Source: a virus (taxonomy: Duplodnaviria; Heunggongvirae; Uroviricota; Caudoviricetes). Taken from it: a stretch of 32,118 nt of DNA. Made by a program: the position numbers and the translations under genes. Below the pieces are notes generated by a model. The model saw only the letters and a list, made by a program, of their open reading frames with translations, searched no databases and had not been told where the DNA came from. Of the stretch, positions 1,854 to 3,167 are shown piece by piece. Each line of letters begins with the position of its first letter. Position 1 is the stretch's first letter. The stretch lies in IMG/VR virus record IMGVR_UViG_641736163_000005, one strand, 5' to 3'.

Positions 1854-3167
1854 TCATTCTCCTGTTCTGCCTGTATCACTGCCCACTTCATCCAGCCCCT
1901 TAACATCCTGCCACGGCCCGTCACCAAACCTGACCTGCAAATGCTGAAACAGCCCCTGAACCTGTGTGGCATCTTTGGGGTCAAGAAAGGTCAGTCCGGT
2001 GATGAGTGCGCCATCTGTATCCGGGAACCAGCCATTGCTGTTTGTCTCAATAATGCTCGCCGGCCCCAGACGAAAACGGATTTGTGTCTCCCCCGGGTCG
2101 CCCTTCGGTCCCTGAGGTCCGGTTGCCCCCACCGGGCCAGCCGCACCTGTTTCTCCTTTCGGTCCCTGTGGGCCTGCCGGGCCTGCCGCACCGGTATCTC
2201 CCTTTGGACCCTGTGGACCTGCATTTCCCGTCAGACCGGTCTCTCCCCGCTCTCCCCTGTCACCTTTCGGCCCCTGCGGGCCTGCCGGACCAGCATCACC
2301 TGCCGGTCCCCGTTCGCCGGTTGCCCCGACAGGGCCGGTGTCACCGCGCTCTCCCTTATCACCCTTCGGCCCCTGAGGACCCGCGGGCCCCTGTTCCCCC
2401 TTTGGCCCGGGAGGTCCCACCACTGTGGGGATTCGGTTTACGGCGTCTTCCGCCGCTATCCTGCTTTGTTCCGCTGACTGTGCGCTTTCTGCTGACTCCC
2501 GGGCTTTTTCTGCTGCGGTCGTTGCATCCCTGGCTGCATTACCGGCTGCACTTTCTGCCGTCTTTCTTGACAATTCAGCTTCTGCTGCACTTTGTGATGA
2601 CTCACTGGCTTTTTGAGCGGCCTCAGAGGCCGAGGACGAGGACGCCTCCTCTGACTGCTTTGCTGAGGCTGCACTTTCTGCCGCCTGCCGGGCTGACTCC
2701 GATGCATATCCTGCTGAAGTGTCAGCATGTGCAGCGCTCTTTTCTGCCTGACTGGCTGATATGCCGGCATTCCTTGCTGACGTCTCCGCCTCTCCGGCAT
2801 TCTTCTTCGCCTCCTCAGCGTTACGCGCCACCTCTTCCACCATCAGTTCAAAACGTCGCAGTGCCTCCGGACGGGCATCATCCTCCGACATGGCACCGAG
2901 AAAATCATTCAGCGTACCGGGTTGAGAATCTTCATACACTGTGATGGTCCCGGCATGCGAAGGAGGAAAACCTTCAACCAGCAGGGTGACGCTGTACTGG
3001 CCATACTCAACATCCATGCTGTAACGCCCGGCTTCATCCGGATTTTCTGAGGCCACCGTGTTCACCACCACCGTGGTACTGTTACGTTTTGCTTTCAGCT
3101 GGATTGTGCAGTTCTGTACCGGTTTTCCTGTGCCGTCTTTCAGTACACCTGAAATCTTTACTGCCAT
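1854..3167 (-). CDS. stf: side tail fiber protein with collagen-like Gly-X-Y repeats
   Basis: N-terminus MAVKISGVLKDGTGKPVQNCTIQLKA matches recalled lambda Stf N-terminus; long GPxGPxGxxGxxG collagen-like tract; GTGAGGTG RBS. Confidence 0.85.
   Translation of the reverse strand: MAVKISGVLKDGTGKPVQNCTIQLKAKRNSTTVVVNTVASENPDEAGRYSMDVEYGQYSVTLLVEGFPPSHAGTITVYEDSQPGTLNDFLGAMSEDDARPEALRRFELMVEEVARNAEEAKKNAGEAETSARNAGISASQAEKSAAHADTSAGYASESARQAAESAASAKQSEEASSSSASEAAQKASESSQSAAEAELSRKTAESAAGNAARDATTAAEKARESAESAQSAEQSRIAAEDAVNRIPTVVGPPGPKGEQGPAGPQGPKGDKGERGDTGPVGATGERGPAGDAGPAGPQGPKGDRGERGETGLTGNAGPQGPKGDTGAAGPAGPQGPKGETGAAGPVGATGPQGPKGDPGETQIRFRLGPASIIETNSNGWFPDTDGALITGLTFLDPKDATQVQGLFQHLQVRFGDGPWQDVKGLDEVGSDTGRTGE

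Follow-up and report, generated by a model that had tools for sequence, protein, structure and literature searches.

Collagen-like side tail fibres in lambdoid prophages of the kind found in enterohaemorrhagic Escherichia coli (EHEC) have been known since 2012, as have their differences in length by whole Gly-X-Y triplets (Ghosh et al., PLoS One 7:e37872; PMC3368898). The protein described in that study, EPclA (EHEC prophage collagen-like protein A), is listed at 14 loci of O157:H7 strains (eight in EDL933 and six in Sakai) with 437 amino acids, a PCoil domain of 116 amino acids and a collagen domain of 111 amino acids (PMC3368898, Table 2). EPclA from Sakai is a trimer. Its collagen signature in circular dichroism melts at 42 °C, and a separate coiled coil, alpha-helical and trimeric, does so at about 52 °C. 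Moreover, its PfC domain is a trimerisation module from which refolding of the helix is nucleated, and electron microscopy reveals a hinged dumbbell (PMC3368898). Another described relative is the side tail fibre (Stf) of phage Ur-lambda, a trimeric accessory fibre that speeds adsorption; cryo-electron microscopy places its collar in contact with gpV and gpM, with the fibre projecting near the tail tip (PMC12617516). The present analysis concerns the stf gene of IMG/VR record IMGVR_UViG_641736163_000005, a stretch of 32,118 nucleotides from a virus of the Caudoviricetes, which is called the window below and is a defective prophage of Escherichia albertii TW07627. Positions 2085-2417 on its minus strand very probably code for the part of an EPclA-type lambdoid side tail fibre that forms the collagen triple helix.

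The finding matters little beyond correct annotation. What it adds is that the shorter alleles examined are clean deletions at 5-11-nt direct repeats relative to the 37-triplet form, and that a strain-specific microhomology deletion joining the tail genes Z and J (Z::J) has been mapped in an E. albertii prophage. If it were true that fibre length tunes adsorption to hosts with different surface layers, the length variants would, speculatively, form a natural allelic series.

Domain architecture of the side tail fibre and its Gly-X-Y tract

The stf coding sequence comprises 1314 nt and is translated into 437 amino acids, from an ATG at position 3167 to a stop codon at 1854-1856. The open reading frame (ORF) on the minus strand spans 1854-3173, and the ATG at 3167 is the start that all homologues use, beginning with MAVKISG. 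Three Pfam families cover most of the product. Phage_tail_N (PF08400) matches residues 1-133 over 133 of 134 profile positions (E=1.2e-69, 232.9 bits against a cut-off of 26.6), Collagen (PF01391) matches the Gly-X-Y tract with 65.5 bits against a cut-off of 27.2, and Phage_fiber_C (PF06820) matches residues 363-426 over all 64 profile positions (E=6e-36, 123.1 bits against a cut-off of 25). In addition, residues 1-93 match the collar domain of Ur-lambda Stf (PDB 9e7m chain Ta and 9mgh, E=4.5e-52). The segment between PfN and the collagen tract (about 117 residues, 134-250) is rich in Ala, Ser and Glu and agrees in composition and length with the PCoil domain of EPclA (about 116 amino acids). 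The gene lies downstream of a J remnant and lom, an order also found in phage 434 and in an intact prophage of E. coli 2022H047, located beside bioA-ybhB (locus L002), which served as the reference for the deletion described below. The original prediction, made from the letters of the sequence, had called this gene a side tail fibre; the PF08400 match, the likeness to the Ur-lambda collar and a full-length identity of 96.7% to the side tail fibre of phage 434 all agree with that assignment.

Residues 251-361 consist of 37 uninterrupted Gly-X-Y triplets (111 amino acids), reading GPPGPKGEQGPAGPQGPKG...GPQGPKGDPGET. The same prediction had placed a collagen-like tract of about 110 residues at 2090-2420, with no strand given. 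Its nature was correctly recognised and its extent was essentially exact, each end being off by at most 5 nt; the coding strand is the minus strand. Such a run is far outside chance expectation, as the next longest run of glycine at every third residue in the six-frame translation of the window has six triplets, the longest run in 200 shuffles of the window reached at most six, and that in 2000 shuffles of the Gly-rich residues 241-370 at most nine. Of the 37 X positions, 18 hold proline, and the tract contains 24 charged residues among its 111; for the EPcl family, Ghosh et al. give about 22% charged residues and a Pro-rich X position (PMC3368898). The DNA of the tract is very rich in GGN and CCN codons, with a G+C content of 70.9% against 50.9% for the whole window, so that its description as GC-rich was accurate.

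Of 8000 candidate proteins that were scored, 4459 match Stf at E <= 1e-20. The exact 437-amino-acid sequence has no record in the protein collection, and none of 5426 complete E. coli genomes carries a 100% match to the window, the best reaching 98.8% over 1500-3900 and 99.8% over stf alone. The absence of an exact E. coli match is explained by the Z::J fusion, which belongs to E. albertii TW07627. Judged by its sequence, stf can be assigned with high confidence to the published EPclA family, as every defining feature that a sequence can reveal was found.

The sequence and its domain architecture, the polymorphism in tract length, the deletion junctions and the loss of tail genes were observed directly in this analysis; trimer formation, the triple helix and collar docking come from the literature. 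Three chains would assemble into one fibre, whose N-terminal collar domains would dock on the tail, as the literature on such collars suggests, and whose Ala/Ser-rich segment would form a trimeric coiled coil. Collagen rises about 0.286 nm per residue, and the 37 triplets (111 residues) would accordingly form a rigid triple helix of about 32 nm. The PfC domain would trimerise, nucleate this helix and probably carry or recruit a receptor-binding function. With a docked collar, a coiled coil, a rigid helix and PfC arranged in this way, the collagen tract would act as a length-setting spacer in an accessory adsorption fibre. That the protein of this allele trimerises and folds into a true triple helix of the collagen kind is suggested by its DNA identity of about 96% to the O157:H7 alleles. 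Two points weigh against this picture: the biochemistry comes from those O157:H7 alleles and not from this exact protein, and receptor binding by PfC, which we infer, is no more than probable.

Length variation and repeat content of the tract

The original prediction had held that the number of repeats could vary between related prophages and had proposed a comparison of stf homologues. When this comparison was run on the best 120 cluster representatives of the 4459 homologues, the count proved far from identical, extending from 4 to 38 triplets and always changing by whole triplets. Proteins with both PfN and PfC carry 4, 5, 8, 14, 15, 16, 19, 20, 21, 25, 26, 32, 34, 35, 36 or 37 triplets, and homologues with a Peptidase_S74 C-terminus carry 9 to 38. 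The commonest counts are 19 (n=30), 9 (n=16), 37 (n=14) and 15 (n=9), the others within the range being rarer; these are not population frequencies, because the census counts representatives of 90%-identity clusters rather than genes or independent events, which speaks against leaning heavily on it. Ghosh et al. reported collagen lengths of 63, 78, 81, 111, 114 and 144 amino acids for EPclA, likewise differing by multiples of three (PMC3368898). When 47 distinct tracts of the PfC class were aligned to the window tract, every gap was a multiple of three residues, and gap edges fell in the recurring motifs GPAGPQGPKG[D/E], GPVGATG and GERG[D/E]TG. Substitutions in this alignment affect 12 cells at X, 50 at Y and none at Gly, although the absence at Gly follows in part from the definition of a tract as a run without interruption.

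The origin of these differences becomes visible at the DNA level. Four shorter alleles (loci L003-L006) were aligned to the window, and each differs by one clean deletion, of 162, 162, 198 or 261 nt, at direct repeats of 5-11 nt. The two 162-nt deletions lie in different places, both inside homeologous 24-mers encoding GPQGPKGD; the 198-nt deletion equals the exact spacing of the 11-nt repeat GGGGCAACCGG, and the 261-nt deletion sits at the 8-nt repeat CCTCAGGG. The tract DNA flanking the four deletions has only 0-3 differences from the window, and the deletions are therefore young relative to point divergence. Conversely, stf of phage 434 differs from that of the window by 43 nt and has the same length, with 37 triplets in both, so that at least 3% of divergence has left this form unchanged. 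The codon differences between the two genes are 34 synonymous against 7 non-synonymous (11 against 1 in the collagen tract), a ratio which indicates that stf is under purifying selection.

Phages give a similar picture. The region matching window positions 1857-2600 (744 nt) was compared in 60 phage records sampled across the ranking, and 20 of them have exactly the window length, which is the commonest there. One extra triplet (753 nt) is present in three Stx1a records (H168, H172 and H173), and seven Stx2a records (H161-H167) measure 743 nt, a 1-nt loss that would shift the frame of stf. In the separate records Stx2a_F451, H201 and H204, the tail fibre is annotated as a split pseudogene.

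Taken together, the alignments suggest that tract length changes by occasional deletion over an evolutionary time-scale and not by rapid slippage. Occasional recombination or replication misalignment at short homologies would generate the changes, chiefly in-frame deletions between short direct repeats encoding the three motifs named above, along with one-triplet gains, and selection would then keep whole-triplet changes (multiples of 9 nt) alone.

The coiled-coil segment is length-polymorphic as well, measuring 158, 130, 117, 95, 44 or 9 residues from the NDFLGA marker to the collagen start (for example in P0001 and P0003-P0006). A common form of 396 amino acids lacks 41 residues between two AESAA motifs; 41 is not divisible by seven, which departs from the heptad rule of Ghosh et al. 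Among the cluster representatives a long collagen tract goes with a short PCoil, and compensation between the two lengths was considered; it was set aside, as the sample consists of representatives of 90%-identity clusters and the 437-amino-acid form, long in both, is common among O157 genes and phage records.

Other readings of the tract have to be weighed against this account. Two long plus-strand ORFs, 1533-2477 (314 amino acids) and 2084-2944 (286 amino acids), cross the region that encodes the collagen tract and the coiled coil, and they could be taken as a sign that the real gene lies on the plus strand or that the tract is non-coding repeat DNA. This deserves practically no credence, because three Pfam families match the product of the minus strand with scores clearly above their cut-offs, the 4459 protein matches mentioned above belong to this product, and its differences from phage 434 are mostly synonymous in that frame. 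Opposite a coding sequence with many GGN and CCN codons, stop codons are expected to be absent; both ORFs are antisense artefacts, long because the sense strand is rich in GGN, CCN and GCN, and they could mislead gene callers. A bacterial surface adhesin resembling Scl1/Scl2 or Lcl, instead of a virion protein, would account for the weak NCBIfam matches of the Gly-X-Y region to SclB, Lcl and SclA, and Ghosh et al. leave room for a role in the bacterium itself (PMC3368898). These matches cover the low-complexity and Gly-X-Y region alone and score far below the family cut-offs (NF038329, 92.5 against 325 bits; NF038330, 69.6 against 400; NF046116, 86.8 against 500). Furthermore, the N-terminus, MAVKISGVLKDG..., has no hydrophobic signal-like stretch, an LPXTG motif is absent, the domains on either side belong to phage fibres, and the J-lom-stf position is shared with viable phages. 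With scores so low and no signals for export or anchoring, the adhesin reading was rejected as highly improbable. Somewhat less remote, yet still very doubtful, is a contingency locus, in which highly repetitive DNA slips often and produces fibre-length variants within a lineage. The many length classes in close relatives with near-identical flanks, and the extra triplet or 1-nt frameshift of some phage records, would fit such a locus; the DNA itself does not. The original prediction had described it as near-repetitive and prone to slippage and recombination. Weak imperfect repeats are indeed present, including two 56-nt copies, 80% identical and 99 nt apart, which encode GPAGPQGPKGD[R/K]GERG[E/D]TG, contain 11-nt exact repeats at the same spacing and belong to a dispersed family of 61-80% identity. 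A high-copy tandem array, which was considered as a basis for slippage, was not found: Tandem Repeats Finder gave at best two copies of a 45-nt unit with 84% matches and otherwise two trivial 9-nt repeats, so the perfect or near-perfect tandem repeats of a simple-sequence contingency locus are missing from the tract. Exact direct repeats within it reach 11 nt at most, since the five copies of GPQGPKG[D/E] are written in different synonymous codons. Since the DNA is so weakly repetitive, occasional deletion is expected rather than rapid slippage, and the 37-triplet allele, commonest in the sampled phage records, has indeed persisted unchanged relative to phage 434 despite 43 substitutions. Thus, of the predicted instability, discrete deletions at microhomologies stand and rapid slippage falls.

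The tail-module deletion and the intact stf and lom genes

The tail shaft genes had been reported as deleted, and both Pfam matches and alignment to the intact prophage L002 confirm it. Window positions 6112-7384 match Z, FII and FI of L002, and positions 4882-6120 match the middle of J; the two blocks overlap by 9 bp at the microhomology TGGCCTGCG. In comparison with L002, 8573 bp are missing, comprising the rest of Z, then U, V, G, T, H, M, L, K and I, and codons 1-419 of J. What remains is an in-frame fusion of Z residues 1 to about 72 with J residues of about 420-1137. This protein is identical to EDS91071.1, which was deposited for E. albertii TW07627 under the name 'host specificity protein J' and is a singleton in the protein collection, and the junction was found in none of the 5426 complete E. 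coli genomes; the deletion is therefore strain-specific. The head genes Nu1, A, portal, C, D, E, FI and FII are still present, together with the lysis genes, Q, O and P. With the remainder of Z, the genes U to I and J residues 1-419 lost, however, the fibre cannot mount on a tail made by its own prophage.

Both stf and lom are full length according to Pfam, as had been predicted, and their persistence beside a missing tail shaft had been ascribed to some other function, such as lysogenic conversion by lom. For stf, no such reason is supported or needed. The junction is strain-specific, the fusion is a singleton, and stf differs from the allele of the intact prophage by 7 nt (and from that of E. 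coli RM14723 by 2 nt), with 2 nt of difference in lom in either comparison. A recent deletion most simply explains why both genes are intact in a tail-less prophage, as too little time would have passed for visible neutral decay. A lysogenic-conversion role of lom is plausible from the literature (PMC1151598).

Selection for an intact block of lom, stf and the following PfC ORF is an unlikely alternative, although a less remote one than those discussed for the tract. Possible reasons for it include expression of lom as an outer-membrane protein in lysogens, linkage to type III effector genes, and service as a fibre cassette for co-resident lambdoid phages through recombination. In its favour, lom is transcribed in lambda lysogens and implicated in adhesion (PMC1151598), terminator-like hairpins bracket lom in a manner that fits an insulated accessory gene, effector genes always lie downstream of the block, and temperate phages acquire stf DNA from defective prophages (PMC3945230). 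The combination of an intact stf with a damaged tail module also recurs independently in L001 (E. coli RM14723, where an IS3 element replaces V through J), in L005 (with a truncated J) and probably in L004 (whose tail module also appears disrupted), which counts against a recent deletion as the full explanation and leaves room for some selection for stf retention. Against selection stand the absence of the junction from complete E. coli genomes, the singleton fusion and the few differences from intact-prophage alleles; a scan for sigma-70-like promoters upstream of lom or stf also gave none at its threshold, a weak negative, as it was a simple consensus match. Recent deletion thus remains the preferred explanation. 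A bolder version of the selective view, and a long shot, would treat the lom-stf-PfC cassette retained in tail-less prophages of attaching-effacing Escherichia as a donor module for co-resident lambdoid phages (through trans-complementation or recombination, affecting fibre length and host range), or its collagen-like protein as serving the bacterium, with the recurring microhomology deletions as adaptive tuning of fibre reach, for example to the depth of O-antigen or capsule.

The surroundings of the block are summarised in Table 1. The short ORF behind stf is almost wholly a second PfC domain, 39% identical to that of Stf, and is kept after stf in every related locus seen. Its annotation in phage 434, 'tail fiber assembly chaperone', names a putative function, and some database proteins (such as P0011, 494 amino acids) are frameshift fusions of stf with this ORF. 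Type III effector genes always follow these two genes in loci L001-L007 and in phage 434: NleG in the window, NleB, NleC, NleD, NleH and a HECT-type E3 ligase in related loci, and NleC- and NleD-like genes with NleB and NleH fragments in phage 434. Among the more distant features, the esterase and DUF1398 ORFs resemble accessory genes carried in the late region. The prophage is further damaged by an IS21-family element and two IS1 copies, one of which, inserted in the late region between Q/esterase and the lysis genes, could be polar on late transcription, stf included.

Table 1. Features of the window referred to in the text, in window coordinates (IS, insertion sequence; aa, amino acids)
Feature	Position	Strand	Basis or remark
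NleG-family type III effector ORF, start codon uncertain	887-1519	-	PF06416, E=3.6e-41
PfC-only ORF, 89 aa	1583-1852	-	PF06820; ATG starts 1 nt past the stf stop
stf, EPclA-type side tail fibre (very probable)	1854-3167	-	Pfam phage_tail_N, Collagen and Phage_fiber_C; equal length in phage 434, E. coli RM14723 and 2022H047
C-terminal 76 residues including PfC (residues 363-426)	1857-2084	-	PF06820, 123.1 bits
Col, residues 251-361, 37 Gly-X-Y triplets	2085-2417	-	PF01391, 65.5 bits
Best-scoring tandem-like array, 45-nt unit, 2.0 copies, 84% matches	2132-2222	-	Tandem Repeats Finder
Imperfect direct repeat, copies 2236-2291 and 2335-2390	2236-2390	-	Repeat search
PCoil, residues 134-250, Ala/Ser/Glu-rich	2418-2768	-	Sequence; coiled coil by likeness to EPclA
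PfN, residues 1-133	2769-3167	-	PF08400, 232.9 bits
Terminator-like hairpin between lom and stf	3184-3205	-	Terminator annotated at the matching phage 434 position
lom, Ail/Lom outer-membrane beta-barrel, 199 aa	3232-3831	-	PF06316, residues 1-199 of 199, E=2.9e-122
Terminator-like hairpin between J and lom	3861-3880	-	Terminator annotated at the matching phage 434 position
Z::J in-frame fusion ORF, 808 aa	3899-6325	-	Pfam Minor_tail_Z at residues 3-77, then J domains
Deletion junction, 9-bp microhomology	6112-6120	.	Alignment to L002
DUF1398 ORF, opposite strand, between lysis genes and Nu1	14776-15201	+	
IS1 transposase copy	18662-19144	+	
DUF1737/SASA-type esterase ORF near the Q gene	19212-20039	-	
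IS100-like element of the IS21 family (istA/istB), flanked by the O gene and the repressor gene (28471-29262)	26347-28148	+	
IS1 transposase copy, to the window end	31615-32118	+	

Comparison with known fibres and collagen-like proteins

The closest counterparts of the window Stf are the EPclA proteins ECs2717 and ECs0844 of Sakai and Z0982 of EDL933. They share the order PfN, PCoil, Col and PfC, the total of 437 amino acids, the 111-amino-acid collagen domain, the coiled coil of about 116 amino acids, about 96% nucleotide identity over the whole gene and the place after J and lom. The differences lie in the host, E. albertii TW07627, in the loss of the tail shaft genes and in a few amino acids; none of them is structural.

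Also close are fibres of phages with complete genomes and full tail modules, which the window lacks. In phage 434 (OL657226), CPT_434_23 is annotated as a side tail fibre and has 1314 nt and 37 triplets, and its neighbours follow the same order, from J through a terminator, lom and a second terminator to stf, the 89-amino-acid PfC ORF and type III effector genes; its lom is more diverged from that of the window (58 nt and 22 amino-acid differences). Full-length stf matches of 96-97% identity are also present in VT1-Sakai, 2851, 2B8 and many Stx1 and Stx2 phages. Stf of Ur-lambda (P03764; PDB 9E7M/9MGH) occupies the same gene position and has a homologous collar (residues 1-93). It continues as a coiled-coil rod with a distal T4 gp37-like domain that binds OmpC, whereas the window Stf has a coiled coil, a predicted collagen triple helix and a PfC end, and is followed by the small PfC-only ORF.

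Within the same family, EPclB (933W/Sp5; Z1483 and ECs1228) and EPclD (the S74-type of Shigella and E. coli) share PfN, PCoil and closely related Gly-X-Y sequences. The tract and PfC region match 933W-type Stx2 phages at about 95-96%, and S74-type proteins agree with the window Stf over residues 1-250 and through much of the tract. However, EPclB has two collagen domains split by a Pf2 repeat in place of the single domain of the window Stf, and in EPclD a Peptidase_S74 chaperone domain takes the C-terminal place of PfC. Beyond phages, Scl1 and Scl2 of Streptococcus pyogenes, Lcl of Legionella and BclA of Bacillus likewise build an unhydroxylated, charged Gly-X-Y triple helix nucleated by a flanking trimerisation domain. 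The window Stf differs from them in its flanking domains and in having neither a signal peptide nor a wall anchor, and it would be a component of the virion rather than of the cell surface.

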